Part shown: positions 19,366 to 62,342 of the stretch, in pieces
Position numbering within the stretch: position 1 is the first letter of the stretch
Layout: each line of letters starts with the position of its first letter
Assembly (NCBI GenBank): GCA_964497125.1
Contig: CAZCDU010000007.1
Location: 5,503 to 69,502 of the forward strand
Reading direction: 5' to 3'
DNA from: an uncultured Victivallales bacterium
GTDB taxonomy: Bacteria; Verrucomicrobiota; Kiritimatiellia; UBA8416
DNA: 64,000 nt
The notes under the pieces: model-generated
Told to the model about the DNA's origin: nothing
Databases searched by the model: none
What the model saw: only the letters and a program-made list of their open reading frames with translations
Translations under genes and position numbers: made by a program

Positions 19366-20754
19366 ATGACGTTAGCAGAGCTGATTTCGACGATTGATGG
19401 CTATGTTTGGGGGGTGCCGCTGATGGTGCTCCTGGTCGGGACTGGGGTGTACCTTACAGTCAGGATGCGCCTGGTTCAGTTTCGTGGGTTCGCCCATGCC
19501 ATCCGTGTTCTGCGAGGGGGGTACGATTCCGAGGGGGACAAAGGGGAGATCTCCCATTTCCAGGCACTGTCGGCCGCGCTGTCGGCCACGATTGGTACAG
19601 GCAATATCGTCGGTGTGGCGGCCGCCATCCTGGCCGGCGGGCCGGGGGCGGCTTTTTGGATGTGGGTCACGGCGTTAGTCGGCATGGCCACCAAGTTCAC
19701 GTCCTGTACGTTGGCCGTTCATTTCCGCCGCATCGACGAGCACGGGGAAGCCCACGGTGGCCCGATGCACTTCATCGAGCTCGGCATGGGCCGGCGGTTC
19801 AAGTGGCTGGCGGTCTTGTTCGCTTTCTTCACGGTCACGGCGAGTTTCGGTATTGGGAATATGTTCCAGATCAATAACTGTGCTGTGAGTCTAAATGCCC
19901 TGGTGCGGCCTGGATCGGAGCCGACACCGGGATTCAGTTTGTTGGTCGGTGTGGTTGTAGCCGTGCTCGTCGCCTGCGTGATCCTCGGTGGGATCAAGCG
20001 AATCGGACGTTTTGCATCCGAGCTCGTTCCCGTGATGTGTTTCATCTACGTGGCCGGCGCTCTCTATGTTCTGATCCGCAATGCACCTGCGATTCCCGGT
20101 GCATTCAACACGATCTTCTACCATGCGTTCCACAAGCCAGAGGCGCTTGCCGGTGGCCTGCTTGGTACCGTGATCCGGTCCGGCGTGGCGCGCGGTCTCT
20201 TCTCCAACGAGGCCGGCATGGGATCGGCCGCCATGATGTTCGGTGCGGCTCGGACAAAGGAGCCCGTGCGCGAGGGGCTCGTGGCCATGCTGGGACCCTT
20301 TGTTGATACCATTGTGATCTGCACCATGACGGCGCTGGTGATTGTTACAACGGGAGCCTACGAGGTCTGTTCCATCAAGGGCGAGTTGACAGGGAGAGCG
20401 TTTGAGCTTGGGATGGGGCATCCCATTGGCGCCAGGATCGTTTCTGTCGGGGTGATTCTGTTCTCATTCTCGACCCTGGTTTCCTGGTCCTACTACGGTG
20501 ACCGCGCCGCCGACTATCTCTTCGGGCGCCGTGCCGTGTTGCCCTATCGCCTTATCTATATCGGGTTCGTCGTACTCGGAGCCGTTGTTAGTATTGGAAC
20601 CATCATCGACTTCTGCGATGCGATGAACGGCTTGATGGCGGTGCCAAACCTGGTTGCTCTCATCGTGCTTTCACCGTTGGTGGCCAAGCTGACGCGGGAT
20701 TACTTCAAGCGCATGCGTTCCGCCGGTGCTCAAAAGTCTGCTGCAGATAGTTGA
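19366..20754 (+). CDS. alanine/glycine:cation symporter (AGCS family)
   Basis: AGCS hallmark N-terminus (GVPLMVLLVGTGVYLT...FQALSAALSATIGTGNIVGVA). About 11 TM segments. Confidence 0.8.
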   Translation: MTLAELISTIDGYVWGVPLMVLLVGTGVYLTVRMRLVQFRGFAHAIRVLRGGYDSEGDKGEISHFQALSAALSATIGTGNIVGVAAAILAGGPGAAFWMWVTALVGMATKFTSCTLAVHFRRIDEHGEAHGGPMHFIELGMGRRFKWLAVLFAFFTVTASFGIGNMFQINNCAVSLNALVRPGSEPTPGFSLLVGVVVAVLVACVILGGIKRIGRFASELVPVMCFIYVAGALYVLIRNAPAIPGAFNTIFYHAFHKPEALAGGLLGTVIRSGVARGLFSNEAGMGSAAMMFGAARTKEPVREGLVAMLGPFVDTIVICTMTALVIVTTGAYEVCSIKGELTGRAFELGMGHPIGARIVSVGVILFSFSTLVSWSYYGDRAADYLFGRRAVLPYRLIYIGFVVLGAVVSIGTIIDFCDAMNGLMAVPNLVALIVLSPLVAKLTRDYFKRMRSAGAQKSAADS

Positions 20755-20800
20755 CGAATGCCACAGACCCCGTATACTTTTTGTCAAGGGACAGAAGTAT

Positions 20801-22147
20801 ATGGAACCCGAAGATCCTAAAACACTATTGCGCGCATACTGGCGTGAGCAATCCGAGCGGACGCTCCCAGTTGGAAAGCTGACGGGCTGGCTCGGGGTCA
20901 CAACGCTTCCCGCCTTCATGATCCAAGACATCTTCTTTGTACAGACGGGCTGGGCAACCCTGTTTCGCCTGTTGGGAATCGCGGCATCGATCCTCTTTCT
21001 CGTGAAGGCGCACACAACGTTCCGACATGATGTCAGGAAGGTTATCCACTATCACTCGCTGGTTCTTGTCATGCTCATGGTGCAGATCTGCGGGTTAACC
21101 TATGTTCTGTGGCGAAACGGTTCTGCGACCTCCCATTACGAGGTCGGCACAACGCAAGGCATCACGGTCGTGACGCTTGTTGTCTTCCTGCTTGCGAAAG
21201 GTGCGCGGCGGTTCCTGCCGCTCATTACGGGCATACCCTTTGGCATTCTCGCAATCCTAATGCTGACAACCGCTAACCGACCTCTTGGGGATTTGGCGCT
21301 GTTCACGAATCCCGGGATTGTCGTGGTTGTTGTGGCTCTGTATTCCCGGTCACGCGAGAAGGTCACCTTTTCGGAGTTTTCGATGCGCCGGCTAGCGTCG
21401 CGTCACGAAGAAGAACTTGAGCTGTCTGCGAAGAGGCTGGCCCGCACGAACGCGGAGCTGCGTGGGTTTGCCTACACGGCATCGCATGATCTACAGCAGC
21501 CGTTGCGGTCGATCTCCGGTTTTCTTGACCTGATCCGTGACGAGCTGAGCGGCGCGGGTGTGTTGAAGGATACCGTTGCGGACCACTTCTCACGGGTGAC
21601 GGGCGCTGCACAGCGGATGTCCGAGCTTGTCGACGCCCTGTTGGCCTATTCGCGAGCGACTTCGCGCGATGCCGTATTCGTCAATGTGGACCTGGACCAG
21701 GTCTTGGATGACGTGAAGAGCGATTTGAGTTCAGCGATTCAGAGTTCTAACGCGACGATTGATAGCACGCCGCTGCCCCAGGTGCGGGGCGATATCCATC
21801 AGCTTGCATCTGTTCTGCAGAATCTCATCACGAATTCGATTAAATATGCGAAAGACGATGAAGCGCCGCTTATCCGAATCAGGGCTATCGATGAAGAGGA
21901 TTCTGTCCGCATTTCGATTACCGATAACGGAATTGGATTCGACCCTGAGAATGCCTCTGCTCTCTTCGAGGCCTTCAAACGGCTGCACAAATCGGGAGAG
22001 TTTGAGGGTGTTGGGCTTGGGTTGGCAATATGCCGCAAGTATGTCGAGGGCCATGGGGGAGAGATTGGGGCGACCGGGGAGCCGGGGCTGGGGGCCACGT
22101 TCTGGTTCACACTTGCCAAAGATCCTGACGGTGCCGGTCAAGGTTGA
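20801..22147 (+). CDS. membrane sensor histidine kinase (paralog 1)
   Basis: About 6 TM helices at the N-terminus. H-box ASHDLQQPLRSISGF. HATPase_c N/G1/G2 boxes. The start overlaps the transporter stop region; 20726 is an alternative start. Confidence 0.7.
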   Translation: MEPEDPKTLLRAYWREQSERTLPVGKLTGWLGVTTLPAFMIQDIFFVQTGWATLFRLLGIAASILFLVKAHTTFRHDVRKVIHYHSLVLVMLMVQICGLTYVLWRNGSATSHYEVGTTQGITVVTLVVFLLAKGARRFLPLITGIPFGILAILMLTTANRPLGDLALFTNPGIVVVVVALYSRSREKVTFSEFSMRRLASRHEEELELSAKRLARTNAELRGFAYTASHDLQQPLRSISGFLDLIRDELSGAGVLKDTVADHFSRVTGAAQRMSELVDALLAYSRATSRDAVFVNVDLDQVLDDVKSDLSSAIQSSNATIDSTPLPQVRGDIHQLASVLQNLITNSIKYAKDDEAPLIRIRAIDEEDSVRISITDNGIGFDPENASALFEAFKRLHKSGEFEGVGLGLAICRKYVEGHGGEIGATGEPGLGATFWFTLAKDPDGAGQG

Positions 22148-22224
22148 GCCGGTGGTTCGCCTGATACGCTCCCTCAATGATGTTTCTGTGGGGAGGACTC
22201 GTGTCTATTCCATTGCTGTATTCC

Positions 22225-23604
22225 ATGAACGCGGGAGGCTCGATACTCGATGGCGCTACCGGTGAAGAACGGGAAGCCCTTCTGATCGCGTATCGCAGTG
22301 AGCAGGCGGCGCAGACGCTTTCCATTACGCGATTCAGCGCATGGGTTGGCATCCCCGCTATACTTTTCCTGATGTTGCAGGATACCTTTGTTACACGCAT
22401 CGGGTGGATTTCTCTACTTCGCCTGATTGGGCTTGTCCCGTGCTTCTTCGTCCTCGTCAAGGCGTATACCGTTTTTGAACGCGACACGACGACTGTGATT
22501 CGTGACCACTGTATCATGCTCTCTCTCGTCATGACGCAGATCTGCCTCATATCTTACGTGTTGTGGCGTCTTGATCCCGAAGGCATCAACTATCAGCAGG
22601 GGACGACACACGGCATCACAACAGCGATTCTTGTCGCGTTCCTGGTAATTGGCGGCGGACGGCGATTCCTCCTTCTGGTCCTGGGCATTCCCTTTCTCAT
22701 CCTGACGATCTTGCTGTTGACAGCTTCCGGTAGGGAATTGGCGGATCTCTCGCTATTCGTTATTCCCGCGGTGACTCTCGGCACGCTGTCGATTTACTCG
22801 GCATCGCGCGAAGACGTCGTCTTTTCTGAGTTTGCCATGCGCCGACTTGCTGCCCGGCAGGAGGAAAAGCTCAAGAGGTCCGCTGAAGCGCTATCGCGCA
22901 CCAACGCTGAGCTGCGCGGGTTTGCCCATACCGCCTCGCATGATCTGAAACAACCGCTCCTGTCGATTTCCGGATTCCTGGACATCATCCACCATGAGTT
23001 GGGCCAGGAAGGGCTGCTGAAGGACAGCATCGCCGACTTCTTTGGGCGGGTACAGGGGGCGGCACACCGAATGTCTGAGCTCATTGATTCCATGTTGGTC
23101 TATTCCCGTGCAACATCACGTGAAACGGTGTTCTCTATAGTGGATCTGAACCAGCTCCTGGATGCTGTGAAGGATGATCTGCACTCAGCCATTCAGAACT
23201 CTGGTGCCACGATCGAGAGCACACCACTTCCCAACGTGCATGGCGACTTCTCCCAGCTCGCATGCGTTCTTCAGAATCTCATCGCAAACTCGATTAAATA
23301 CGCGAAAGCGGGTGAAGCGCCATTGATCCGGATTAGCGCCAGTGATGAGGAGAACGTTGTCCGCATCGTGATCACCGACAACGGGATCGGCTTTGATCCC
23401 GGGTATGCCTCTGCACTTTTCGATGCCTTCCGAAGATTGCACGAGGCGGGCGACCATGAGGGGGTCGGGCTTGGACTGGCAATATGCCGTAAGTACATCG
23501 AACGTCATGGCGGAGAGATTGGGGCAACCGGCGAGCCGGGGGTGGGAGCCACGTTCTGGTTCACGGTCGCCAAGCAGTCGGCCTGCAGCACGGAGTCGGG
23601 CTAG
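22225..23604 (+). CDS. membrane sensor histidine kinase (paralog 2, tandem duplicate of 20801-22147)
   Basis: Same architecture as paralog 1 and collinear with it along its full length (e.g. ASHDLKQPLLSISGF). Confidence 0.7.
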   Translation: MNAGGSILDGATGEEREALLIAYRSEQAAQTLSITRFSAWVGIPAILFLMLQDTFVTRIGWISLLRLIGLVPCFFVLVKAYTVFERDTTTVIRDHCIMLSLVMTQICLISYVLWRLDPEGINYQQGTTHGITTAILVAFLVIGGGRRFLLLVLGIPFLILTILLLTASGRELADLSLFVIPAVTLGTLSIYSASREDVVFSEFAMRRLAARQEEKLKRSAEALSRTNAELRGFAHTASHDLKQPLLSISGFLDIIHHELGQEGLLKDSIADFFGRVQGAAHRMSELIDSMLVYSRATSRETVFSIVDLNQLLDAVKDDLHSAIQNSGATIESTPLPNVHGDFSQLACVLQNLIANSIKYAKAGEAPLIRISASDEENVVRIVITDNGIGFDPGYASALFDAFRRLHEAGDHEGVGLGLAICRKYIERHGGEIGATGEPGVGATFWFTVAKQSACSTESG

Positions 23605-48119: not shown

Positions 48120-48926
48120 ATGACAAAAGTAGCAATCGCGGGTGCAGCGGGTCGCATGGGGCAGGCACTGATACGGTGTTCTCTACAGTCCGAGGAAATC
48201 GAGGTGGTGGGGGCAACCGAGCGGGAGGGGCATGAGGCCCTGGGGCAGGATGCCGGTACCTTGATCGGTGGTGAGCCACTGGGCGTGGCCATAACTGACG
48301 ACTTGGCCGCCGTGATGCCCGCTGCCGATGTCCTGATCGACTTCACGTACCATGCTGCCGTACCCGTCAACACGGACATTGCAGCGAAGGCTGGGCGTGC
48401 CGTGGTAATCGGCACAACGGCTCTCGAGGATGCCGAACTTGCGGTTGTCGAAGCAGCGGCAGGCAAAGTACCCATCGTTCTGGCCCCGAATATGAGCCTT
48501 GGCGTCAATCTGCTTTTCGCCGTATCGAAGCGGGCCGCGTCTGTGCTTGGGCCAGGGTATCGCGTCAGAATTGACGAAACACACCATATCCACAAGCTGG
48601 ATGCACCCAGTGGTACTGCTCTACGCCTTGGCGAGAAGGTGGCCGAAGGCGCCGGTGTCAGTTTTGAAGATACATGGCTGCACGACGAAGGTGGGCAGCA
48701 GGAATCCTATCCGGAGGGGCGAATCCCCATCCGTTCCTTCCGGGAAGGCGAAGTGGTGGGGGACCACACGGTCTGTTTCGAGAACGACGTTGAGCGCATT
48801 GAGTTGACGCACCATGCATGGAGCCGGGATGCGCTGGCGATGGGATCGCTGCATGCCGCAAAATGGGTCTGCACCAAACGGCCCCGACTCTACGATATGC
48901 AGGATGTGCTGGGATTGAGTACATGA
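48120..48926 (+). CDS. dapB: 4-hydroxy-tetrahydrodipicolinate reductase
   Basis: VAIAGAAGRMG N-terminal NAD(P)-binding motif. EL/HH region. Confidence 0.85.
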   Translation: MTKVAIAGAAGRMGQALIRCSLQSEEIEVVGATEREGHEALGQDAGTLIGGEPLGVAITDDLAAVMPAADVLIDFTYHAAVPVNTDIAAKAGRAVVIGTTALEDAELAVVEAAAGKVPIVLAPNMSLGVNLLFAVSKRAASVLGPGYRVRIDETHHIHKLDAPSGTALRLGEKVAEGAGVSFEDTWLHDEGGQQESYPEGRIPIRSFREGEVVGDHTVCFENDVERIELTHHAWSRDALAMGSLHAAKWVCTKRPRLYDMQDVLGLST

Positions 48927-49273
48927 AGATTCTCGTCCTCGATGACGATACGGTTCTACTGACCGTGATGGAATCTGTTCTTTCGAAGAACGGCCATGAG
49001 GTCACCTGTATCGATAACCCGGAAGAAGCGGTTGGGCTGGTTGCTGAGAACGACTACGATTTTCTCCTCGTTGACTATCAAATGGAAGGCAAGACCGGCG
49101 TCTGGTTCATGGAAAATGTGAATCTGCCGGCCCAAACGAAGGCACTGCTGATAACGGGTAGCGTTGACCGGGATATCATCACCAACATGTTTGACCTGGG
49201 TGCCTCCGGGTATATCATCAAGCCTTTCGATGAAGCCGAACTGTTGCGGCATCTTGAATTCCACACGAAGTAG
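48923..49273 (+). CDS. single-domain response regulator (receiver only)
   Basis: ILVLDDD, DFLLVDYQM and GYIIKP receiver motifs. ATGA overlap with the dapB stop. Confidence 0.7.
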   Translation: MKILVLDDDTVLLTVMESVLSKNGHEVTCIDNPEEAVGLVAENDYDFLLVDYQMEGKTGVWFMENVNLPAQTKALLITGSVDRDIITNMFDLGASGYIIKPFDEAELLRHLEFHTK

Positions 49274-50612: not shown

Positions 50613-50688
50613 TGGAGCCAGTTGAGGGACTCGAACCCCCGACCTAGTGATTACAAATCACTTGCTCTGCCAACTGAGCTAAACTGGC
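50613..50688 (-). tRNA. tRNA-Thr (anticodon UGU)
   Basis: Cloverleaf reconstructed by hand: 7-bp acceptor GCCAGTT/AACTGGC, anticodon loop TTTGTAA, T-arm GGTTCGAGTCC, encoded CCA. Confidence 0.8.
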
Positions 50689-50764
50689 GTTGTCGACGTG
50701 AAAAGTCGCGGGGTACTGTAGCCATCTGAGGCTGATTGTCAACGTCAGAACGTACCCCGTGCTT

Positions 50765-51553
50765 CTATTTTACGAATCGGCGAATTGCTGCCAGCAGGTC
50801 GTCCGTGTTGTTCGACGTCAGGTACTGCGATACGCCCTCCGGAATGCGGCGCCCGTATCGGCTCTCCTCATCGAATGTTCGCGTTTCATCGTAGAGAATG
50901 ATCGGTACGTGTTTTGTGCTCGGCATGGCTCGTACAAGGGGTGCCACGACACGGCCGTTCATGCCGGGGAGGATGTCCTTCATGACGATGGCTGCCGGTT
51001 TCGTTACGGCAGCCGTTTCCAGAAGTTCGGCGCCCGTTTCACAGAGCTGGACATCGAATCCCGCAAGGTCAAGATCCTTCGTGAGTCGCTTGACGACCTC
51101 AACGTCGTTCTCTCCCAGCAGAAGCTTCTCCCGCTGCCTGCTAGGCTCTTCCACTTCCTCTAGTTGCTGGCGGGGGTTGTCGGCAAGGACCTTGTTAACC
51201 TTGCTGAGCAGTTCCTGTTCCGAGCAGGGCTTGGCCACGAACCCGGCAACATTCAGGGCATCAAAGAACTCCTGCATTGCCGCGCGTGCCGTGAAGACCA
51301 GGACGGGGTAGGGAAGCGTCTCATTTTCCTTCTGCAGCTTGTTTAAGAAGCCAATCCCACCGATACCAGGCATGCTGATGTCAAGAATGATGAGATCCGG
51401 GTCAAGTTTCTCAAGCTTTTTGAGTGCTTCTTCACCGCTCCTCGCTACGACAACTTCGAAGCCCTCGTACGTGAGATAGTCGGCAAGCGTGATCCCTAGA
51501 TGCTTGTTGTCATCAACCAGGAGTAGTGTTGGTTTTTTCTTATCTTCAGCCAT
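50765..51553 (-). CDS. tandem double-receiver protein (REC-REC, no output domain)
   Basis: First REC LLLVDDNK...ILDISMPG...FVAKP. Second, more divergent REC. Paralog of 55685-56452. Confidence 0.7.
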   Translation of the reverse strand: MAEDKKKPTLLLVDDNKHLGITLADYLTYEGFEVVVARSGEEALKKLEKLDPDLIILDISMPGIGGIGFLNKLQKENETLPYPVLVFTARAAMQEFFDALNVAGFVAKPCSEQELLSKVNKVLADNPRQQLEEVEEPSRQREKLLLGENDVEVVKRLTKDLDLAGFDVQLCETGAELLETAAVTKPAAIVMKDILPGMNGRVVAPLVRAMPSTKHVPIILYDETRTFDEESRYGRRIPEGVSQYLTSNNTDDLLAAIRRFVK

Positions 51554-51562
51554 GGTATCTTC

Positions 51563-51952
51563 CTATTCTGGGCTCTGTAGCGCTTCTCTAATTCTTGCCG
51601 TCAGTTCATCAAGCCTGAAAGGCTTGGCCAGAAATGACTCCCCGCCGATGCTCCCCCCGTGCATACGTTCCTCGGATTTGCTCACAACGGCGGTTGTGAA
51701 TATGATTGGGACATGCTTCAAGCCAGGTTTGGTTCGTATTGCCTGGGCGACATCACCACCGTCCATTTCCGGCATCATGACGTCCAGCATGATGACGTCG
51801 GGGCGAACCGTCTTGAGTTTCTCAAGCGCTTGCTTTCCGTCGCCTGCAGCGACAACGTCGAACCCCTCGAAACGAAGAAAGTCTGTGATCGTTGTCAGCA
51901 GGTGTTGGTCATCATCGACGACCATCACGGTGGCTTTTGTGTTTGGTGTCAT
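51563..51952 (-). CDS. single-domain response regulator (receiver only)
   Basis: VMVVDDD, IMLDVMMPEMDG and LAKPF. Confidence 0.75.
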   Translation of the reverse strand: MTPNTKATVMVVDDDQHLLTTITDFLRFEGFDVVAAGDGKQALEKLKTVRPDVIMLDVMMPEMDGGDVAQAIRTKPGLKHVPIIFTTAVVSKSEERMHGGSIGGESFLAKPFRLDELTARIREALQSPE

Positions 51953-51963
51953 CCGCTAATCCC

Positions 51964-53628
51964 TCAAATGCATTGCCACAGTGTGTACCTGTTTGCGCTA
52001 TCTTGCAAGATAGTGTTTTCCAATAATTGCGCTTTCGATAGCGTCGAGCAGGGCCTCTCGCTCCTCCACGGTTTTGCCAGGGCAGGTACACTGAATCGCT
52101 CCAACATATCTCGAGTTTCCCGGTTAAGCTCAGATCCTGTGAGAACAACGATGGGAACCCGGCGCAGCTCGTGGTCCGCCTTCACCATGGCAATCAGCAT
52201 GTCGCCGGATATCTTGGGCATGACCAGGTCGACGAGCAGAATGTCGGCGCGCTTTTGAGTAAGAACAGTCAGGGCCTCGTGGGGGTCGGAAACGGGAAGT
52301 ACCGCGTAGCCGTCAGTGGCAAGTTGGGTACAGGCCACCTCCAATACCTCGGGGCAGTCGTCGACGGCCACGATGGTCGGTGGCTCCGGAGCTGCGGGAA
52401 GTGAGACGGTGACACGAGTGCCCCGATCCCGTCCCGGCGGCGGGCTCTGGATGGCAATCGTTCCGCCATGCAGTTCTACGATCTCCTTTGCCATGGAGAG
52501 TCCCAGGCCCATCCCGTCAACATGGTCTCCAACGCGGAAGTAGCGGTCCGTTACCTTGTCAATATACTCGTGGGGAATACCGCTGCCGGCATCCGTTATT
52601 GCAACACAGAGCATGTCGACAGGGTCGGTGGCCCGGAATAGCTGGACATTGATGGTGCCGTCGGGGCTCGTGTAGTCCATGGCGTTTCGCACGATGTTGA
52701 GCAGGACGCGCTCTATCTTTGTGACATCACAGGCAGCGAACCCCATGTTGTCCGGGATGTCGGTTTCGAGCGAGATGCTGCGTTCGTCCAGTTCGATCAT
52801 CACGCTCTTAAGTGTGTGCCGTAGAAAGCGGCCAAAGGGGACAACGGCCTGCTCGAGCTTCAAGGTGTTGGCTTCGATTCGGCCCAGGTCCAGAATATCA
52901 CTTATGGTCCGGTGCATTCGCCGGGTGTCATCGCGCACCATTTCGAGATAGATCCTGACACGGTCCGGCACCTCCCCCATAAGGCCCTTCAGCAGATTGC
53001 CGACCGCGTAGCTCATGGAGGCAAGCGGTGTCTTGAGTTCATGCGATACATTGGTGACAAACTGGGTCTTGGCGCGGTCATGTTCTTCCAGGCTGGAGAT
53101 AGCCTGGCGCAGGCTCCGCTCTGTCTCTTTGCGGACCCCAATCTCTTCAGTGAGCTGACGGTTTGTTTCTTCGAGCTCCCGCGTGCGGTCCTGCACGAGC
53201 TCTTCAAGTTGGTTCTTATAGCGATGTAATGCCGTTTCCGTGGCTTTACGCTGGATAGCATATTGGACGGATCGCACCAGGACATTGGCTGTTTCGACGG
53301 AGCCTTTGACCAGGTAGTCCTGGGCGCCCTGGTGAACAGCCTTCACGGCAAGCTCATTGTCCTCAAGCCCCGTCATGAGAATGATCGGCAGATCCGGTGC
53401 GCCTTCTCGCATGGTGGTGAACGTTTCCCAGCCCGTGGAGTCGGGAAGCGTCAAGTCGAGGATGACGACATCGAAAACGTTTGCTGCGATCGCGGCAATA
53501 CCGTCGTCCAGTGTTTGCCGCCATTCGATCGTGAAACGCTGTTCGGCTTCCTTCAGAAGTTGCGATGTCAGGATGAAATCATCCTCATCGTCTTCAACGA
53601 ATAACACGGTGATGGGCTCTGTGCGCAT
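51964..53628 (-). CDS. hybrid histidine kinase REC-HisKA-HATPase-REC
   Basis: N-terminal REC (VLFVEDDEDD...ILDLTLPD). H-box SHELKTPL. HATPase. C-terminal REC (IVAVDDC...LLVDLVMP). Paralog of 56449-58053. Confidence 0.8.
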   Translation of the reverse strand: MRTEPITVLFVEDDEDDFILTSQLLKEAEQRFTIEWRQTLDDGIAAIAANVFDVVILDLTLPDSTGWETFTTMREGAPDLPIILMTGLEDNELAVKAVHQGAQDYLVKGSVETANVLVRSVQYAIQRKATETALHRYKNQLEELVQDRTRELEETNRQLTEEIGVRKETERSLRQAISSLEEHDRAKTQFVTNVSHELKTPLASMSYAVGNLLKGLMGEVPDRVRIYLEMVRDDTRRMHRTISDILDLGRIEANTLKLEQAVVPFGRFLRHTLKSVMIELDERSISLETDIPDNMGFAACDVTKIERVLLNIVRNAMDYTSPDGTINVQLFRATDPVDMLCVAITDAGSGIPHEYIDKVTDRYFRVGDHVDGMGLGLSMAKEIVELHGGTIAIQSPPPGRDRGTRVTVSLPAAPEPPTIVAVDDCPEVLEVACTQLATDGYAVLPVSDPHEALTVLTQKRADILLVDLVMPKISGDMLIAMVKADHELRRVPIVVLTGSELNRETRDMLERFSVPALAKPWRSERPCSTLSKAQLLENTILQDSANRYTLWQCI

Positions 53629-53636
53629 GCCGGTCC

Positions 53637-54080
53637 CTACAGGTCTGGGGGTAGCTCCACGATTTCAAGCCAGTAGTGTCCCAGTTCCTTGACAAGGTCC
53701 ACAAGCTTATCGAACGTAACGGGTTTCCTGATGTATGAGCTGATGCCCATGTCGTATGTCGAAATGATATCCTCTTCCGCCGATGACGTCGTCAGCACGA
53801 TGACGGGAATTCGCCGCAGCTTTTGATTGGCCTTAATTTCCTTTAGGGCTTCCCTGCCATCCTTTCGGGGCATGTTCAGATCAAGCAGAATAATGTGTGG
53901 GTGTGCTGCATCCGCGTATTCGCCTCTCTGGAGAAGATAGTCCATCAGCTCTTCGCCATCGGCAACAATGGCCAGGTCGTTGGCCAGTCGTGCCTCCTCG
54001 AACGCTTCTCGCACGAGCATCTGGTCTTCGACATCGTCCTCAGCCATAAGTATGGAAATCGGTGTTGCGGGTCCCATCAT
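53637..54080 (-). CDS. single-domain response regulator (receiver only)
   Basis: ILMAEDD, ILLDLNMP and YIRKP. AAGGAG RBS before the ATG at 54078-54080; the longer ORF to 54155 would overlap the upstream kinase. Confidence 0.7.
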   Translation of the reverse strand: MMGPATPISILMAEDDVEDQMLVREAFEEARLANDLAIVADGEELMDYLLQRGEYADAAHPHIILLDLNMPRKDGREALKEIKANQKLRRIPVIVLTTSSAEEDIISTYDMGISSYIRKPVTFDKLVDLVKELGHYWLEIVELPPDL

Positions 54081-54102
54081 TGTATTTCTCCTTCGTTGCC
54101 CC

Positions 54103-55680
54103 TTATTCAGTGCTGGGTAGAAGAATCCTAAAGCAGGCACCTTCACCTTCTTCACTGATCGCCGTTAACTGTCCATCATGTCGTTCAGCAATTCTGCGGC
54201 AGATCGCAAGCCCTATGCCGGTTCCCGGGTACTCTTGAGCCCCATGCAGGCGCTGGAAGACACCAAAGATCCGATCCACATCCTCCTGTGGAAACCCGAT
54301 ACCGTTGTCTTCTATCATGATTTCATGCTGGGGGACATCATTCTCTTCGTCGGGTGGCACAATCGTACTTGTTACTTCTACGATCGGCGGGACGTCCGCC
54401 CTGTGGAATTTCAGTGCGTTGCCGATGAGGTTCTGGAACAGCTGGCGCATCTGGATTGGGTCAGCCACCAGCGTTGGTAATGGCCCAATATTGACGGTTC
54501 CACAGGTCTCATGAAGGCTGGCCTCAAGGTCCGACAGAACGCCTTTGACCATCTCATTCAAGTCCACCGGTTCGTGAGGCTTCTCGCGCGTTGTGACCCG
54601 CGAGTAACGGAGCAACCCCTCAATCAGTTCCACCATGCGGCCTGCTGAATGCTGCATCCGGCTCAGTGCATCCTGTATGTCGGGTGCCAGCTCAGACTCA
54701 TCATGCCCCATGATGATATCGGCAAAGGTCGTGATCTTCCGCAAGGGCGCCTGAAGATCGTGTGAGACGGCGTAGGCAAACTGTTCGAGATCCTCATTGG
54801 AGCGTTGCAGCTCCGTCAGGGTCCGCTCCAGTTTTAGCGTGGTCAGCTTTACATCGGTAATATCCAGTAGGGAAAACACCATGCCCGTTACTTCGTCGTC
54901 TGAGTTCATGTTTGGGGCAACGGAGGCACGGACATAGAATGTGCTCCCGCGCACCGTCTCGCAGGCGAGCTCCTGGGCCCACGCAAGTCGTCGGGACACC
55001 GCCATCAAAATGGCATTCGCTGTATCGTCGTCGCACAGAAACGTGCGCATGTTCTTCCCGACCATGTCCTCCAGACTGCGCATGCCCCAGAGTTCAAGCA
55101 TGGCAGAGTTAACGTAGCTGATGTTACCCTTGAGGTCGGCTACGGCGATGCCGTTAGCCGCATTCTGGATGGCAGTGTGACCGGTCCGGAGACGGTCCTC
55201 GGCCTCCCGGCGAACGGAGATGTCGCGGATGAAGAAGCAGTAGTATTCGGTATCCTGCAGTGAAACACGATTGACGGAGATTTCGGCAGGGAACATCCGT
55301 CCGTCGCTGCAAACACAGGCTGCTTGAATGAGAAGGAATTTGTCATTCTCCAGGCTACCCCGGACTTCGTCTATCAGCGTCATGTCCGAGCCGTAGAGCA
55401 TCCCGACGATGCTACATCCCAGGATGTCGCTGTGCTCATAGTTGAGGAACTGACAGGCTCGCCCATTGGCATCCAGGATGTTCCCGGAGGTGTCGGTGAG
55501 CAGAGCACCATCATATACGCTATCGAGCAGTTGCTGGAAATCAGCCCCCCCCAGGGGGCGATAGGAGTCCTGAGCATCAAGGGGATTGGCCAGGCTCACG
55601 TTCTGGGTCTGTCGCTTGGCAGACGCATAGTCAGGCAGGATGTCGATTCGTGTTGTCGTGGCGAGTATATTCCGGTCCAT
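54103..55680 (-). CDS. cytoplasmic PAS-PAS histidine kinase
   Basis: Two PAS blocks. H-box SHDLQAPLRKI. HATPase motifs. No TM. Confidence 0.8.
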   Translation of the reverse strand: MDRNILATTTRIDILPDYASAKRQTQNVSLANPLDAQDSYRPLGGADFQQLLDSVYDGALLTDTSGNILDANGRACQFLNYEHSDILGCSIVGMLYGSDMTLIDEVRGSLENDKFLLIQAACVCSDGRMFPAEISVNRVSLQDTEYYCFFIRDISVRREAEDRLRTGHTAIQNAANGIAVADLKGNISYVNSAMLELWGMRSLEDMVGKNMRTFLCDDDTANAILMAVSRRLAWAQELACETVRGSTFYVRASVAPNMNSDDEVTGMVFSLLDITDVKLTTLKLERTLTELQRSNEDLEQFAYAVSHDLQAPLRKITTFADIIMGHDESELAPDIQDALSRMQHSAGRMVELIEGLLRYSRVTTREKPHEPVDLNEMVKGVLSDLEASLHETCGTVNIGPLPTLVADPIQMRQLFQNLIGNALKFHRADVPPIVEVTSTIVPPDEENDVPQHEIMIEDNGIGFPQEDVDRIFGVFQRLHGAQEYPGTGIGLAICRRIAERHDGQLTAISEEGEGACFRILLPSTE

Positions 55681-55684
55681 AGAG

Positions 55685-56452
55685 CTATACTCCCAGGGTT
55701 TGTGTGACGGCCTTCAGAAGCGCGGGGCCATCATTAGCAGAGAGGAAACAGGACACGCCTACCGGCATACCAGAGTCCTGAGTGCCGTCATCACGTGCGT
55801 CATCATAGAGTACAATAGGTATTGACCGCGTGCTGGACATAGCCGCCATCAAGGGGGCTGCAACGTGTCCCTTTATATTGGGTAGCGAGTCTTTGATCAG
55901 CACAACGTCAGGCTGGTTCTCCCGGGCCGCATCCAGGAGCTCCGTCGCTGTCTGCAGGACATCGACCCGGAAGCCGGCTGAAAGAAAGAAGGCCGTCAGT
56001 TCCGTCGCCGTCTCCGCATCATCTTCCACAAGCATCAGCCGGCTGGGAAGGTCTTGCTTTGCAGCCGCCTGGCGTTCGTGGCGCGCGAGAATGCTGCGCA
56101 CTTCGGAAACAAGCACAGGCTCCGGGCAGGGCTTCATAAGAAAACCATCTATAGGGAGCTTTGCGAAGAACGACCGGAGCGTGCCGCGTGCCGTCAGCAC
56201 AAGAACGGGGTGTCTTGGTACGCCGGATTCGTCGGAAATCTGCTTCAGGAATTCAATTCCTCCCATTCCCGGCATACTGATGTCCAGGATGATCAAATGG
56301 GGAGCCATTGATGTCAGTTTTTCCAATGCCTCTTCGCCGCTTGACGCCGTTTCGACATTGAATCCTTCGAATGAGAGGAAGTCCTTGAGTGCTACCTGGA
56401 AGTGCTCGTTGTCATCGACGACAAGAAGTGTGTGTGAGCGGTTCTCTTTCAT
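55685..56452 (-). CDS. tandem double-receiver protein (REC-REC), paralog of 50765-51553
   Basis: LLVVDDNEH...ILDISMPG...LMKP, then a second REC-like half. Confidence 0.7.
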   Translation of the reverse strand: MKENRSHTLLVVDDNEHFQVALKDFLSFEGFNVETASSGEEALEKLTSMAPHLIILDISMPGMGGIEFLKQISDESGVPRHPVLVLTARGTLRSFFAKLPIDGFLMKPCPEPVLVSEVRSILARHERQAAAKQDLPSRLMLVEDDAETATELTAFFLSAGFRVDVLQTATELLDAARENQPDVVLIKDSLPNIKGHVAAPLMAAMSSTRSIPIVLYDDARDDGTQDSGMPVGVSCFLSANDGPALLKAVTQTLGV

Positions 56453-58053
56453 TGTTGTGTAAGTCCCATTGCATCGGCATTCAAGTATCGCATGCCGAAG
56501 ACGGTTGTTTCAATCAGGTCCAGAAGATAGTCGAGCTCCCAGGGCTTCGATAGGGTCGGGATGGAGAAGCCTTCGAGGATCTCGCGCCTGGTTCGATCAA
56601 GCTCGCTGCTCGTAATCGCAATGATGGGGATATGGCGCCATGCGGGATGAGCCTTGATCTCGGCGATCATGGCTACGCCGTCTAGAACAGGCATGATTAA
56701 GTCGGTGATGATGATGTCAGGATGCGTGGCTTCAAGGAGTTCCATGGCTTGCCCGCCATCCTTGCAGTGGGCCACCTTGTAGTCCTGGCCGCCGAGTTGC
56801 CCTGAGATGAGCTTACCCGTAACATCACAGTCATCCACCGTTAGTACGTAGGGGGGCGTGCTTTTCGGCAGCCTTACATCGACTCGTGTTCCGCTCTCCC
56901 GGTCGGGGGGAGGGCTGGACAGGGAAAGGCTGCCGCCGTGCAGTTCAACGATACTCTTCGAAATGGCCAGACCTAAGCCCGTGCCTTCAGCATGTTCGCC
57001 GACGCGGAAGTAGCGCTCTGTCACCTTCTCGAGATGCTCTTTCGGAATGCCAATGCCGCTATCCGTAACGGATATCAGGAATTGCTGTTCGTCCTGTGGA
57101 TCCGTGTCGAAGGAGACCTTAATGGATCCTTCAGCCGGGGTGAATTTGACGGCGTTGCGGATGATGTTGAGTATGACGCGTTCTATCTTCTGGGGATCAC
57201 ATTCTGAGAATCCTGTTGCCCGGGTGACAATGCTAAGTTCAAGTTGGCCCTCGGCTGCCTGAAGCTGAAGGGATTCAACCGTCCGACGTACCAGGCGCCC
57301 CAATGGAATTCGTACTTTGTCAAGAGCCAGTCGGTTCGACTCGATACGGCTCAGGTCCAGAATGTCGCCGACGGTGTGACTCAAGCGCTGTGCGTCTTCT
57401 TTTAGCATTTCCAGGTAGGTCACGGCCCGGTCCGGTATCGGTCCCACGATGCCTTTGAGAAGGTTGTCAATCGCGTAGCTCATGGATGCCAGTGGCGTCT
57501 TGAGTTCATGCGATACATTCGATACAAACTCGGTCCGAGCACGATCATGTGCTGTCAGCCGTTCATTGGCCGTCTGCAGTTGCGTATTCGACTGCTCCAG
57601 TTCATTGGTCCGGTCGCTGACCATCTCTTCCAAGTGATCACGGTAGCGCTTGAGGGCGAGCTCCGAACGTTTTCGCTCAATCGCGTAGCGGATAGCCCGA
57701 GCCAGCCGATCTCGATCGATGTGCCCTTTGAAGAGGTAGTCCTGAGCGCCTACCTGGACGGCCTTGACGCCCATGCTCTCATCAGAGAGTCCCGTGAGTA
57801 GAATGACGGCGATATCCGGCGCGTGGGACAAGGTGCTAACCAGTGTTTGCCATCCCCGGGAGTCGGGAAGCGTCAGGTCGAGTAAAATGACATCCGGCGG
57901 GGCCTCATCGATGAGCGTGAAGGCATCACGTAGCCGACCCGCACTCCTTACGCCGAAGTTCTGAGGTCCGGCTTGGGATAGTAGGTGTTTCGTGATGACG
58001 ACATCGTCTTCATCATCCTCGATCAGTAGGACCTTGATGGATTCTTCGTTCAT
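56449..58053 (-). CDS. hybrid histidine kinase REC-HisKA-HATPase-REC, paralog of 51964-53628
   Basis: Same motif set: SHELKTPLASMSYA, HATPase boxes, REC domains at both ends. Confidence 0.8.
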   Translation of the reverse strand: MNEESIKVLLIEDDEDDVVITKHLLSQAGPQNFGVRSAGRLRDAFTLIDEAPPDVILLDLTLPDSRGWQTLVSTLSHAPDIAVILLTGLSDESMGVKAVQVGAQDYLFKGHIDRDRLARAIRYAIERKRSELALKRYRDHLEEMVSDRTNELEQSNTQLQTANERLTAHDRARTEFVSNVSHELKTPLASMSYAIDNLLKGIVGPIPDRAVTYLEMLKEDAQRLSHTVGDILDLSRIESNRLALDKVRIPLGRLVRRTVESLQLQAAEGQLELSIVTRATGFSECDPQKIERVILNIIRNAVKFTPAEGSIKVSFDTDPQDEQQFLISVTDSGIGIPKEHLEKVTERYFRVGEHAEGTGLGLAISKSIVELHGGSLSLSSPPPDRESGTRVDVRLPKSTPPYVLTVDDCDVTGKLISGQLGGQDYKVAHCKDGGQAMELLEATHPDIIITDLIMPVLDGVAMIAEIKAHPAWRHIPIIAITSSELDRTRREILEGFSIPTLSKPWELDYLLDLIETTVFGMRYLNADAMGLTQQ

Positions 58054-59636
58054 TGTTCCCTATCGAATCGCTGTTCGTACGGTAGCGTGACCGCGAAGGT
58101 TGACCCGATCCCCTGTTCTGACGTTACCGAGATATCACCACCATGAACATCGGCGATACGCCGGCAGATGGCCAACCCGATGCCCGTTCCTTCATAGACG
58201 TGCCGCGCATGCAGCCGTTGGAAGATCTCGAAAATCCGAGCCTCATATTTCTGGTCAAATCCCATGCCGTTGTCCTCGACGGAAATGGTGACACGATCAC
58301 CCTCAGAGACGGCGAAGACCTTGATTTCAAGGTGCGCGTCTGTGCGTCGGAATTTGATGGCGTTGGCAAGGAGGTGGCGGAACAACTGCTGCATCTGGGG
58401 TTGTTCGGCGTCGATCGTGGGCAGGTCGCCGATCACAATCGTCCCGCCTGCGTCAGCGAGGTCCTGCTCGAGATCTTTCACGACCTGCTCGAGAATGCCG
58501 TTCAAGTCAACAGACCGGAAAATAGGTTTGCGGCGGGCAAGGCGTGAGAAGGCCAGCAGGTCATTGATCAGAAACTGCATCTGTTTGGCTGACTGAACGA
58601 TGCGTTCCAAGTAGTCCCGTGCCCGCGCGTCCAGACCATCACCCGCGGCCGACGCCAGGCGGTCACCAAAGGCCAGCATTTTCCGAAGGGGTTCCTGGAG
58701 GTCGTGCGCGGCAACCTGGGCGAAACGTTCCAGCTCACTGTTCGTGGTCTCCAGATCAGATAGCGTTCGCCGTAGCATGCGTTCGGCCCGTTCATGCTCC
58801 TGTACCTCTCGCCGGAGATCCTCATTCGCCCGTTCCAATTCAGCGGTGCGCTCTGACACTATTTTCTCGAGCTGATCGCCGTACTGGCGGAGCTCCTCCT
58901 CAGCTTTGCGGCGCTCCGCAACTTCGTTACTCAACTCAATGTCCCGCTGTTGGATGGTATGGAGCATCTCGTTGAACGCATCATTGCATGACTGGATTTC
59001 CTCGCTGCCCTGTTTCGTCGCCCGCAGTGAATAGTCCCCTTCCTTGGAGACGTGGCGCGCCATGTGGGCCAGGTCCAGAATAGGCCTTGAAATGACGGAT
59101 TGCAGCTTTGCGGCCGCAAGGAGAGCCAGCAACAGCGCGCCCAGCACAATGAAGACGAGGGTGATGACATTCCGCCTGGCGGCATCACGCAGGGATGACA
59201 GATCATCCTCGATACAGACTGAGCCAAGGATCTGGCCCCTAACGGCAACGGGGGCGTAGACCCGCACATGGTGGTTCTGGAACATGTGCCCTGAACCCTC
59301 CATCGGGGCTTGATAGGCGGATTGCGGCCTGCCTTCTGGTGTATACGATGCGAACACGGCACCGTTAGCGTCATACGTGTATGCCGCTGAAACCGATTCC
59401 CGCGTATGAAGAATCTCCAGCATATGCGCAGCATCATCTTCACCATCAAAGGTAAGAGCGGCCTCGCTGTTGTGAGCAATGGCCTCAGCCATTCCCTGCA
59501 AATCCTGGACAAGGCTGCGCCGGTTGCTGATGTAGGAGAGCGATCCGAATGAAATGCCACAGGCTACAACGGCAATTGTACACGTGATCATCTGGATCAG
59601 TGTCAGCTGTGCCCTTGTCGTTGTTCCAATTCTCAT
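58050..59636 (-). CDS. membrane sensor histidine kinase with extracytoplasmic domain + HAMP
   Basis: Two TM helices flank a roughly 140-aa domain. HAMP. Coiled coil. H-box AHDLQEPLRKM. HATPase boxes. First gene of the eight-gene two-component operon. Confidence 0.8.
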   Translation of the reverse strand: MRIGTTTRAQLTLIQMITCTIAVVACGISFGSLSYISNRRSLVQDLQGMAEAIAHNSEAALTFDGEDDAAHMLEILHTRESVSAAYTYDANGAVFASYTPEGRPQSAYQAPMEGSGHMFQNHHVRVYAPVAVRGQILGSVCIEDDLSSLRDAARRNVITLVFIVLGALLLALLAAAKLQSVISRPILDLAHMARHVSKEGDYSLRATKQGSEEIQSCNDAFNEMLHTIQQRDIELSNEVAERRKAEEELRQYGDQLEKIVSERTAELERANEDLRREVQEHERAERMLRRTLSDLETTNSELERFAQVAAHDLQEPLRKMLAFGDRLASAAGDGLDARARDYLERIVQSAKQMQFLINDLLAFSRLARRKPIFRSVDLNGILEQVVKDLEQDLADAGGTIVIGDLPTIDAEQPQMQQLFRHLLANAIKFRRTDAHLEIKVFAVSEGDRVTISVEDNGMGFDQKYEARIFEIFQRLHARHVYEGTGIGLAICRRIADVHGGDISVTSEQGIGSTFAVTLPYEQRFDREQ

Positions 59637-59674: not shown

Positions 59675-59690
59675 GAGGCAGCGCTGCCTC
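59675..59690. promoter_or_regulatory. perfect 16-bp palindrome GAGGCAGCGCTGCCTC in the leader of the two-component operon
   Basis: Read directly. Located 39-54 nt upstream of the 59636 start codon on the coding strand side. Confidence 0.35.
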
Positions 59691-59860
59691 CATGCACGAT
59701 GAGTCCCCCATGGCCGTCTTGCCCGCGTCTGTACGTGTTCCCCGTGGCATGTTCCTCCCATACCGTGGTTTTGTCAATTCGGGGAATTGCTGGTTTTTCC
59801 ATCGGGGAATCCCTTACGCAAGCGGGATATGGTGTGGCAGACTCGTGCCTGGCAGTCCGG

Positions 59861-61184: not shown

Positions 61185-62342
61185 ATGTTACGTGCGATCG
61201 ACAGGTGGTTGCCTGGATACGTGGCGTCGATTGGCCGGCGCCCGCCCATAAGCGGCGATATACGCCATCTGTTGGTTTGCGTCGCGGACCACTTTGAACC
61301 CCTGAACTGTACGATCCTTCCCGACGGAACCGTAACGGGAGGAGCTACGGCTTCGGACGCGCGCGCGTTCGTGGACTCGTGGTGCCGTGACTACCGTGAG
61401 ACGCTGGCGGCGTTCCGGGATGCTGACGGGTATTCACCCCGCCACACCTTTTTCTACCCCTGGGATGAATATGAGCCTGGTTGCCTGGATATTCTGGCTG
61501 ACTTCTGTCGCGACGGGCATGGCGAGGTAGAAGTGCACCTTCACCACCGCAATGACACGGAAGCCGGACTCAGGGATAAGTTGATTGCCTGTCGGGATAC
61601 GTACGCGAACCAGCATGGCCTGCTGGGGCGGCGTCTGTCACCCAGCGCATCCGCTGCTGATCTGACGGCGGGGGGAGGGGCTCCGGCCTATGCGTTCGTC
61701 CACGGGAACTGGTGCCTGTGCAATGCAAGGCAGGACGGCGACTGGTGTGGCGTCGAGCGTGAGTTGTCCGTGCTTGCCGAGACCGGTTGCTATGCCGACC
61801 TGACCTTTCCGTCTGCACCGGACCGCACGCAGCCGCGCTTCGTGAACACCGTATACTATGGCCGCAATCCCGGGGGAGGGGAGCGTGGCGTTCAAGTTGA
61901 TCGATGTGTTGGGCCCGGCGGCGAGCGCCGCAAGCCGGTGGATGGGATACTCATGGTTCCCGGCCCGCTGGGATTGAACTGGCAGGCTCGCAAGTTTGGC
62001 ATTGTACCCAAACTGGAGAACGCCGAGATATCCGGAGCCAACCCGGCAACGGCTGAACGGCTGCGCCTGTGGCAGCGGCTTGCGGTGACTGTGCCGGGCC
62101 AGCCTGACTGGACGATCATCAAACTCCATACCCACGGTGCCGATCCCGCAAACCGTGGTGCGCTGCTCGGACCGGCCATGGCTGGCTTCCATGGCGCATT
62201 GAAAGAGGCATGCGATGGGGACAGCGGATGGCGTCTGCATTACGTAACGGCTCGGGAGCTCTTCAATATTATAAAGGCCGCCGAATCCGGCCATGGCGGC
62301 AATCCCGCTGACTACAGGAATGCGGCCATCGTGAGCCCCTAG
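61185..62342 (+). CDS. hypothetical protein (possibly carbohydrate-esterase/deacetylase-like), divergent from the GT2 gene
   Basis: Only weak His/Asp-rich motifs (CVADHFEP, HLHHRND). No confident family assignment. Confidence 0.35.
   Translation: MLRAIDRWLPGYVASIGRRPPISGDIRHLLVCVADHFEPLNCTILPDGTVTGGATASDARAFVDSWCRDYRETLAAFRDADGYSPRHTFFYPWDEYEPGCLDILADFCRDGHGEVEVHLHHRNDTEAGLRDKLIACRDTYANQHGLLGRRLSPSASAADLTAGGGAPAYAFVHGNWCLCNARQDGDWCGVERELSVLAETGCYADLTFPSAPDRTQPRFVNTVYYGRNPGGGERGVQVDRCVGPGGERRKPVDGILMVPGPLGLNWQARKFGIVPKLENAEISGANPATAERLRLWQRLAVTVPGQPDWTIIKLHTHGADPANRGALLGPAMAGFHGALKEACDGDSGWRLHYVTARELFNIIKAAESGHGGNPADYRNAAIVSP

Follow-up and report, generated by a model that had tools for sequence, protein, structure and literature searches.

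In a 64,000-nucleotide stretch of contig CAZCDU010000007.1 (positions 5,503 to 69,502), derived from an uncultured marine Victivallales bacterium of Lentisphaerota type and referred to below as the window, eight genes named here g1 to g8 lie one after the other on the minus strand at positions 50765-59636 and encode histidine kinases and receiver proteins. We consider with moderate confidence that they constitute one operon encoding two paralogous three-tier histidine-to-aspartate kinase cascades of the Lvr type known from Leptospira, in which a pseudo-receiver domain would provide the output and exopolysaccharide (EPS) would be the likely target. The operon is real and conserved, and it builds on known bacterial designs rather than on a new type of system. 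By analogy with Lvr, its architecture is that of a kinase-to-kinase cascade and not that of a classical phosphorelay.

Gene content and kinase architecture of the operon

The preliminary description of this DNA had listed the eight same-strand genes with their coordinates and domain orders, all of which were borne out by the list of open reading frames and by Pfam. In the direction of transcription, and all on the minus strand, these genes are g1 (58050-59636, CHASE8-HAMP-HisKA-HATPase), g2 (56449-58053, REC-HisKA-HATPase-REC, where REC is the receiver domain), g3 (55685-56452, two REC domains according to Pfam, the second being a pseudo-receiver), g4 (54103-55680, PAS-PAS-HisKA-HATPase), g5 (53637-54080, a single REC), g6 (51964-53628, REC-HisKA-HATPase-REC), g7 (51563-51952, a single REC) and g8 (50765-51553, REC-REC by Pfam and again with a pseudo-receiver as second domain). 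The g5 protein has a length of 147 residues in public metagenome gene calls, the 172-residue GTG open reading frame being a mechanical maximum. From g1 to g8 the intergenic distances are -4, -4, +4, +22, +8, +11 and +9 nt, a spacing that fits a single operon, and no terminator-like site was found between the genes. The same DNA is present in several metagenome assemblies and in an NCBI metagenome-assembled genome (MAG). All eight genes are found in unchanged order in the two nearest genomes, L010, the MAG of an uncultured member of the Victivallales, and L011, a MAG under the label Verrucomicrobia, and the same types of parts occur in another order in three further genomes (L013, L014 and L062).

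The absence of an output domain from all eight proteins, as first described, also held, with Pfam (E <= 0.01), NCBIfam and AlphaFold2 models of g2 and g3 in agreement. No DNA-binding, GGDEF/EAL, CheB/R, PP2C or Hpt domain was detected in the eight proteins by Pfam at this threshold, no curated NCBIfam model scored above its cutoff for the six operon proteins scanned (all but g4 and g6), and comparison of g2, g3, g5 and g8 with PADLOC- and PDB-type resources gave no further domain. In the operon proteins, stretches without domain cover do not exceed about 45 residues. A hidden output domain was therefore rejected, since Pfam and NCBIfam gave nothing extra and the g2 and g3 models consist of REC, DHp and CA folds alone. 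As output domains were not found, the earlier view that the output takes place through protein-protein contact or through a partner encoded elsewhere is supported. On the other hand, the label of phosphorelay given to the operon had to be abandoned, because no Hpt was found in the eight proteins and hence the operon contains no His-Asp-His-Asp relay.

The hybrid kinase g2 begins with a REC (Asp59), continues with a DHp domain (His182) and a CA domain, and ends with a second REC (Asp451). Its AlphaFold2 model (predicted local distance difference test, pLDDT, of 85.6) contains one unbroken helix of 86 residues (114-199) leading from the REC into the DHp domain through His182, and the top Foldseek match to this model among 350,542 PDB chains is LvrB (8vc9, E 8e-22). 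LvrB is the prototype of the Rec-controlled kinases, in which phosphorylation of the REC induces a coiled coil and frees the catalytic domains (PMC13269768). Judged from its model, g2 has the structural elements of this class, namely an N-terminal REC, a continuous coiled-coil alphaS helix, a DHp and a CA domain. When 38 full-length g2 homologues were compared, D59, K109 and H182 showed no variation, and 37 of the proteins keep D451. The distance from the REC lysine to the H-box histidine is 59, 66, 73, 87 or 94 residues in 35 of these 38 proteins, indicating that the linker lengths vary by multiples of seven. The signalling helix of g6 exceeds that of g2 by two heptads (14 residues), and the alignment of both proteins shows a single linker gap of 14 residues. 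In the g2 orthologue of L011 (3466-5481, P0290), which has 670 residues vs 534, an inserted PAS domain separates the N-terminal REC from the kinase core, so the helix from REC to DHp can be broken by a PAS module within close relatives.

In all four kinases (g1, g2, g4 and g6) both HisKA and HATPase_c score above the Pfam gathering thresholds, and reading the predicted translations shows the H-box histidine along with motifs N, G1 and G2. The g1 protein has two transmembrane segments, a periplasmic YfiN-like CHASE8 domain (57.5 bits vs a Pfam cutoff of 27), a HAMP domain, a coiled coil and a kinase core that we call class A, with the H-box AHDLQEPLRK. It matches the model NF053592 ("HK near YfiR-like") with 183 bits, below the cutoff of 194, and no YfiR-like gene was found among the annotated neighbours of g1, a nearby 385-residue protein carrying no annotation. 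The second sensor kinase, g4, is cytoplasmic, with two PAS domains followed by a class A core and the H-box SHDLQAPLRK. Two membrane kinases in tandem at 20726-22147 (+) and 22177-23604 (+), 61% identical to each other and without an adjoining response regulator, have cores that belong with those of g1 and g4 in one class, sharing 40% identity with g4 and showing the H-box SHDLQQPL. These orphan kinases could be extra inputs to g5 and to the N-terminal receivers of g2 and g6 (g2N and g6N; the suffixes N and C denote N-terminal and C-terminal domains).

The single receiver g5 is of the phytochrome-associated Rcp1/RcpA type, with full-length matches in the PDB to 5te9 (E 2.6e-38), RcpA (1k68, 7.8e-35) and Rcp1 (1i3c, 2.5e-34). 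No GAF or PHY domain was found in g4 by Pfam, i.e., the kinase adjoining g5 is not a (bacterio)phytochrome. Genes resembling g4 and g5 are adjacent in four genomes (L010, L011, L013 and L014). The g5 protein is the most conserved of the operon, its orthologues in L010 (12371-12811) and L011 (7900-8337) being 94 and 91% identical, respectively, vs 65-80% for the other seven proteins. The other single receiver, g7, is nearest to g3N and g8N (33-34% sequence identity).

The REC-pseudoREC proteins and the age of the modules

The ten REC domains of the operon were aligned with E. coli CheY. The complete catalytic set, i.e., the acidic pair, Asp57, Thr/Ser87 and Lys109, is present in eight of the ten (g2N, g2C, g6N, g6C, g3N, g8N, g5 and g7). 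The remaining two, g3C and g8C, carry a lysine at the position of Asp57, an aspartate at that of Thr87 and, at that of Lys109, an alanine in g3 and a serine in g8. The first reading of these two proteins as double receivers is thus correct as to the fold, both domains being of REC type, and not as to function, the second domain having no acceptor aspartate. In g3, the N-terminal REC is canonical (D13, D14, D57, T87 and K107) and Lys187 replaces the phospho-accepting aspartate of the second domain. The AlphaFold2 model of g3 (pLDDT 91.4) consists of a pair of REC folds with a long helix between them; in the second domain, a variable loop takes the place of helix alpha4. The best two-domain Foldseek match is the REC-REC' stem of PleD, and a PDB sequence search gave matches to the N-terminal REC only. 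No GGDEF domain was found after this stem in g3 or g8, which end at residues 255 and 262, respectively.

Both belong to a large family of proteins of about 255 residues, characterized by the motifs DISMPGMGG, PVLVLTAR and KPC in the N-terminal REC. In an alignment of 59 family sequences the lysine of the second domain is near-invariant and the N-terminal REC is fully canonical. Among 86 family members, the N-terminal aspartate is present in all 86, and the equivalent position of the second domain is occupied by lysine in 74, asparagine in 11, arginine in one and aspartate in none. A scan with one genome per species revealed at least 557 loci encoding relatives of g3 and g8; of the best 80, almost every one belongs to Victivallales/Lentisphaerota, Kiritimatiellia, Verrucomicrobiota and Omnitrophota.

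The neighbourhood of these genes was mapped in 80 species-level loci (L010-L089) with hidden Markov models made from the domains of the window itself. A histidine-kinase gene with the REC-pseudoREC gene immediately 3' of it occurs in 73 of the 80, and in 63 of these 73 the kinase bears a C-terminal REC. The N-terminus of the adjoining kinase varies across the family, being REC, PAS or other, and the example loci annotated with Pfam agree with this adjacency. The conservation of the adjacency across the family suggests that the kinase/REC-pseudoREC pair is the conserved functional unit, and that the operon of the window is a lineage-specific elaboration with two such pairs. The family with its kinase partner appears to be uncharacterised.

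About 36 loci (among L008-L088), spread over many PVC (Planctomycetes-Verrucomicrobia-Chlamydiae) genomes, contain a "core" copy in which the pair of hybrid kinase and REC-pseudoREC precedes nrdR, a gene for a conserved unknown protein (about 200 residues), Amidase_2 and purC (e.g., L048, 10037-13071, and L008, 8458-11837); the genome of L010 has such a core copy (L064) besides the operon. These four neighbours, which came up when a third conserved gene beside the pair was sought, were rejected as functional partners, being read as inherited housekeeping synteny of the core copy. A "Rosetta stone" search for fusions, in which a profile of the pseudo-receiver only was run against 1.84 billion representatives, was uninformative: the long proteins that it returned turned out to be hybrid kinases of the ordinary multi-REC kind, with the aspartate of the second REC intact.

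A duplication of the pair formed by the hybrid kinase and the double receiver had been noticed from the start. The paralogy is clear, with 47% identity over the full length between g2 and g6 and 44% between g3 and g8. The unit is not made of two genes, since g1 and g4 are paralogous as well in their kinase cores (44% identity); the repeated unit is therefore of three genes, that is to say a sensor kinase, a REC-HK-REC hybrid (HK, histidine kinase) and a REC-pseudoREC protein. The orthologues of the operon proteins in L010 and L011 are 65-94% identical, and the paralogues within the operon 44-48%. In a neighbour-joining tree, g8 clusters with sequences of L013, L014 and L023, apart from the clade of g3. 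A recent tandem duplication of the module was rejected on these grounds, g3 and g8 being in different clades and the orthologues being much closer than the paralogues. From these sequence comparisons, the duplication of the module is judged to be old.

Leader, operon end and surrounding exosortase locus

In the leader of the operon, a block of about 75 nt (59740-59813, minus strand) is near-invariant across the three species, and the remaining leader has diverged. This block contains the sequence ATTCCCCGA twice as a direct repeat (59802-59810 and, at a distance of 23 bp, 59779-59787), beside a -35-like TTGACA (59772-59777). In L011, both copies of the repeat share one C-to-T change, and among 94 loci the paired motif was found in the operon leader only. 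As predicted from sequence, the block is probably the operon promoter together with an activator or repressor site. Single copies of ATTCCCCGA were rejected as a marker of a regulon, with 18 in the window vs 18.3 expected.

A 16-bp palindrome, GAGGCAGCGCTGCCTC, had been pointed out at 59675-59690. It is indeed present, and as a functional element it does not stand. Perfect palindromes of 16 bp number three in the window vs 1.3 expected by chance, the two others being TCGTCTACGTAGACGA at 14873-14888 and CTATCTTGCAAGATAG at 51998-52013, the latter inside the 3' end of g6. The palindrome lies in the diverged part of the leader and, as an operator or an RNA hairpin, it was rejected, since it is at chance level, absent from the leaders of L010 and L011, and the fold of the leader has a z of -0.88. 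The conserved direct repeat is a better candidate cis-element than the palindrome.

An Rfam scan found no RNA element in the leader and only a tRNA-Thr 3' of g8. This tRNA-Thr(TGT) lies at 50613-50688 (-) between g8 and folK and has its own near-consensus promoter-like site, TTGACA-16-TACAGT, at 50715-50742 (-). In L011, a tRNA-Thr is also located between g8 and folK (11205-11280), on the strand opposite to that of the operon. The presence of a tRNA gene at this place, also in L011, and its own promoter-like site in the window indicate that the operon ends at g8.

The two arms of an exosortase/PEP-CTERM EPS locus flank the operon. The first arm (28.7-47.1 kb) encodes Wzy, a flippase, glycosyltransferases, an AsnB-like amidotransferase, an exosortase (TIGR02602, above cutoff), EpsI and a priming transferase, and is followed by dapA-dapB-REC-panB and then by folK. 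The second arm begins with a family 2 glycosyltransferase (GT2) gene directly upstream of the operon and on the same strand, after which come a candidate PEP-CTERM ATPase, matching TIGR03015 with an E of 7e-50 and 169.9 bits, below the cutoff of 324.5 bits, and a large TPR protein. At 61185-62342 (+), divergent from the GT2 gene and adjoining the ATPase gene, lies the gene of the 385-residue protein mentioned above, which has no Pfam or NCBIfam match and is 66% identical to its counterpart in L010. This flank is kept in L010 (GT2, the 385-residue protein and the ATPase), and L011 keeps GT2 upstream and folK downstream.

Three candidates for the output had been named in the window. The EPS locus is the one that keeps its place, since the operon lies between its two arms in three species; the support is positional. 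No support was obtained for the orphan receiver of the dap/pan genes, the dap/pan neighbourhood not being beside the operon in L011. This receiver (48923-49273, plus strand) has 116 residues and a full catalytic set, within the dapA-dapB-REC-panB string. The third candidate, a PilZ protein, was discarded, lying 43 kb from the operon with nothing linking the two.

Regulators of the PrsK/PrsR type were also sought in the window and rejected. TIGR02915 (PrsR) and TIGR02916 (PrsK) were absent among the matches listed, i.e., the best 25 families for each protein, for the six operon proteins scanned (all but g4 and g6) and three other kinases of the window, and no sigma-54 activator domain was found among the scanned proteins.

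Gene clusters equivalent to the operon in more distant Victivallales MAGs carry in addition a REC-SpoIIE (PP2C) gene, at 11921-13135 of L093 (the cluster of L013/L093), 14591-15862 of L014 and 1143-2369 of L062; the receiver of its product resembles g2N and g6N. The L014 locus also has a divergent regulator of the REC-GerE (LuxR-type) family at 8396-9136 (-).

Proposed signal flow, alternatives and known systems

From the domain content, catalytic residues, packing, paralogy, helix geometry, kinase/REC-pseudoREC pairing and synteny described above, we infer the phosphorylation partners, the sink roles, the output mechanism and the EPS target of the following scheme. At tier one, the periplasmic signal sensed through the CHASE8/HAMP kinase g1 (module A) or the cytoplasmic one sensed through the PAS-PAS kinase g4 (module B) would lead to the N-terminal REC of g2 or g6, respectively, being phosphorylated. 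This phosphorylation would switch on the g2 or g6 kinase through its long coiled-coil signalling helix, and the activated kinase would then phosphorylate the canonical REC of g3 or g8. The C-terminal receivers of g2 and g6 are probably internal phosphate sinks or modulators. In module B, g5 would take phosphate at tier one as a competitor or side branch, a position proposed because it is of the Rcp1/RcpA type and always 3' of a g4-like kinase, and g7 would take it at tier two as a competitor, a sink for g6 or a side branch, because it is closest to g3N and g8N. The tier-one assignment is supported by the relatives' REC-PP2C proteins, whose REC belongs to the g2N/g6N type. The pseudo-receiver of g3 and g8, which has no site for phosphorylation, would be the output module and act through protein-protein contact. 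On positional grounds, the controlled process is most likely the surrounding exosortase/PEP-CTERM EPS locus.

Several observations weigh against this scheme. Its wiring is drawn from adjacency, domain classes and analogy, and the classes of receivers are weakly separated, g5 being 24-30% identical to several of them. LvrA-like proteins (NF047465 matches) place a g7-like REC ahead of a class A core, so the signal might run between the kinase classes in the reverse direction. An Hpt protein is the usual recipient from hybrid kinases with a C-terminal receiver, and one could be encoded outside the 64-kb window. The extreme conservation of g5, above that of g3 and g8, hints at an effector rather than a sink. 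As for the target, the EPS link is one of position, about half of the family loci adjoin housekeeping genes (nrdR, purC, amidase) and not EPS genes, and the related clusters of L013 and L014 lie outside EPS loci.

A more far-reaching proposal, which we put forward only tentatively, is that the REC-pseudoREC proteins are an unrecognised class of terminal regulators, found mostly in Omnitrophota and in the PVC group. The lysine-substituted pseudo-receiver without helix alpha4 would bind a conserved target, such as the exosortase/EPS machinery or a component of a sigma-factor partner-switching system, and the operon would be a lineage-specific expansion with stacked REC-controlled kinases acting on two such regulators. 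Periplasmic (CHASE8) and cytoplasmic (PAS) signals would then jointly set the surface polysaccharide without a dedicated transcription factor.

The alternatives differ in where they place the end of the pathway. A classical multistep phosphorelay, in which the C-terminal RECs of g2 and g6 would pass the phosphate to an Hpt outside the window and thence to a DNA-binding or enzymatic regulator, with the REC-only proteins tuning the flux, seems to us rather unlikely. It would explain why this REC is intact in both hybrids, with its full catalytic set and the conservation of D451 already noted, and it would agree with the usual signalling of HK-REC hybrids through Hpt proteins; a few distant multi-REC kinases do carry an Hpt. 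However, an Hpt was recorded neither among the genes called in the window nor within +/-10 kb at six annotated related loci, none was found in the eight proteins, and the usual neighbour of the hybrid kinase is a REC-pseudoREC gene and not an Hpt gene.

The REC-PP2C genes of the relatives' clusters raise a second and serious alternative, that of a partner-switching output encoded elsewhere (a REC-PP2C or an LvrC-like REC-anti-sigma protein), for which the REC-only proteins of the operon would be sinks, insulators or connectors. The clusters of L013/L093, L014 and L062 speak for it, the receiver of their REC-PP2C proteins being of the g2N/g6N class, and so does the Lvr cascade itself, which ends in a REC-anti-sigma protein (PMC13269768). 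In this respect the suggestion of an output partner elsewhere is refined, pointing to partner-switching, which was not among the candidates named at first. We nevertheless hold such an output to be improbable for the operon, as the REC-PP2C gene is found neither there nor in its two orthologous copies, whereas the REC-pseudoREC gene is present in all versions and, in most genomes, is the sole partner adjoining the hybrid kinase.

The two modules could also be connected in a single linear cascade, in which phosphorylated g3 would bind and control the PAS kinase g4, so that module A would feed module B in series as an AND gate, and not in parallel with it. The retention of the order g1-g8 in three species, the status of g3 and g8 as old and distinct paralogues that are not interchangeable copies, and the receiver carried ahead of the class A core by LvrA-type proteins are in agreement with such a connection. 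It is very unlikely in our opinion, given that the fusion search returned ordinary multi-REC kinases only, with no fusion pointing to a contact between a REC-pseudoREC protein and a kinase, and that the gene order differs in L013 and L014. Finally, although PVC genomes have many orphan two-component genes, such as the tandem kinases at 20.7-23.6 kb, a chance gathering of unrelated two-component genes, each with its partner elsewhere, can practically be dismissed in view of the conservation: stop codons overlap, or all but overlap, the following start codons, the order is identical in two other species at 57-94% identity, with the types of parts co-occurring rearranged in more distant genomes, and the kinase/REC-pseudoREC adjacency extends over the whole family.

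The cascade of two Lvr-like modules can be compared with several characterized systems. The RedCDEF proteins of Myxococcus xanthus likewise come from an operon that encodes only kinases, among them one in the membrane, and receiver-only proteins, one dual and one single, without any output domain (PMC2755868). They signal by competition for phosphoryl groups, RedE being unable to autophosphorylate and accepting phosphate from RedD (PMC2755868). In contrast, none of the four kinases of the present operon appears from its sequence to have lost a catalytic motif, an acceptor aspartate is missing from the second receiver of g3 and g8, which could therefore play no role in phosphotransfer, and RedCDEF has no REC-controlled kinase. 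In the Che3 system of Rhodospirillum centenum, the signal goes from CheA3 to CheS3, a REC-HK protein, and then to CheY3, and CheS3 alone phosphorylates the single-domain receiver (PMC3868531). As proposed for the operon, a kinase there phosphorylates the receiver of a second, receiver-bearing kinase, and the operon resembles Che3, like RedCDEF, in its lack of an output domain, but Che3 is of the chemotaxis type with CheA, a methyl-accepting chemotaxis protein and CheB/R, none of which is found in the operon.

For the REC-pseudoREC proteins, the PleD stem (PDB 2v0n and 1w25) offers the same association of a phosphorylatable and a degenerate receiver, but PleD has a GGDEF output. The tandem receiver DrdR of Xanthomonas has no output domain and acts by binding target proteins (PMC13507683); unlike g3 and g8, it is an orphan with the pseudo-receiver first, and it is not detectably of the same family. 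What separates the REC-pseudoREC family from both PleD and DrdR is the near-invariant lysine at the acceptor position and the absence of helix alpha4. A large family of response regulators is thereby defined, with a fixed histidine-kinase partner and a diagnostic lysine at the dead acceptor site.

PrsK and PrsR are two-component regulators of PEP-CTERM/exosortase loci (PMC1569441). The operon resembles them as a two-component system inside an exosortase EPS locus, and differs in that no homology to them was found among its six proteins scanned. If the EPS link is true, the production of PEP-CTERM exopolysaccharide would have in the operon a regulator non-homologous to PrsK/PrsR. The operon is thus placed outside the Red, PleD, PrsK/R and classical phosphorelay classes, because the defining feature of each was looked for and was not found. 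Signalling in Lentisphaerota, Kiritimatiellia and Verrucomicrobiota is experimentally almost unstudied, and the interest of the operon is mainly as an entry to PVC signalling and to the cascades of REC-controlled kinases.

By analogy, the closest precedent for the operon is the Lvr cascade of Leptospira, in which LvrA phosphorylates LvrB (PMC5863495) and LvrB in turn phosphorylates LvrC, a REC-anti-sigma protein (PMC13269768, PMC5863495). Both would have in common an upstream kinase acting on the N-terminal REC of a second kinase, a long coiled-coil helix between REC and DHp, and a terminal regulator without a DNA-binding domain. They differ in that g2 and g6 add a C-terminal REC, that the terminal protein is a REC-pseudoREC instead of a REC-Bergerat anti-sigma protein, that the identity to LvrB is about 22%, and that two paralogous modules and two single receivers are here gathered in one operon. 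As such, the operon would be a compact natural case of two Lvr-like cascades with competitor receivers, and could serve as a test bed for the insulation between REC-controlled kinases.

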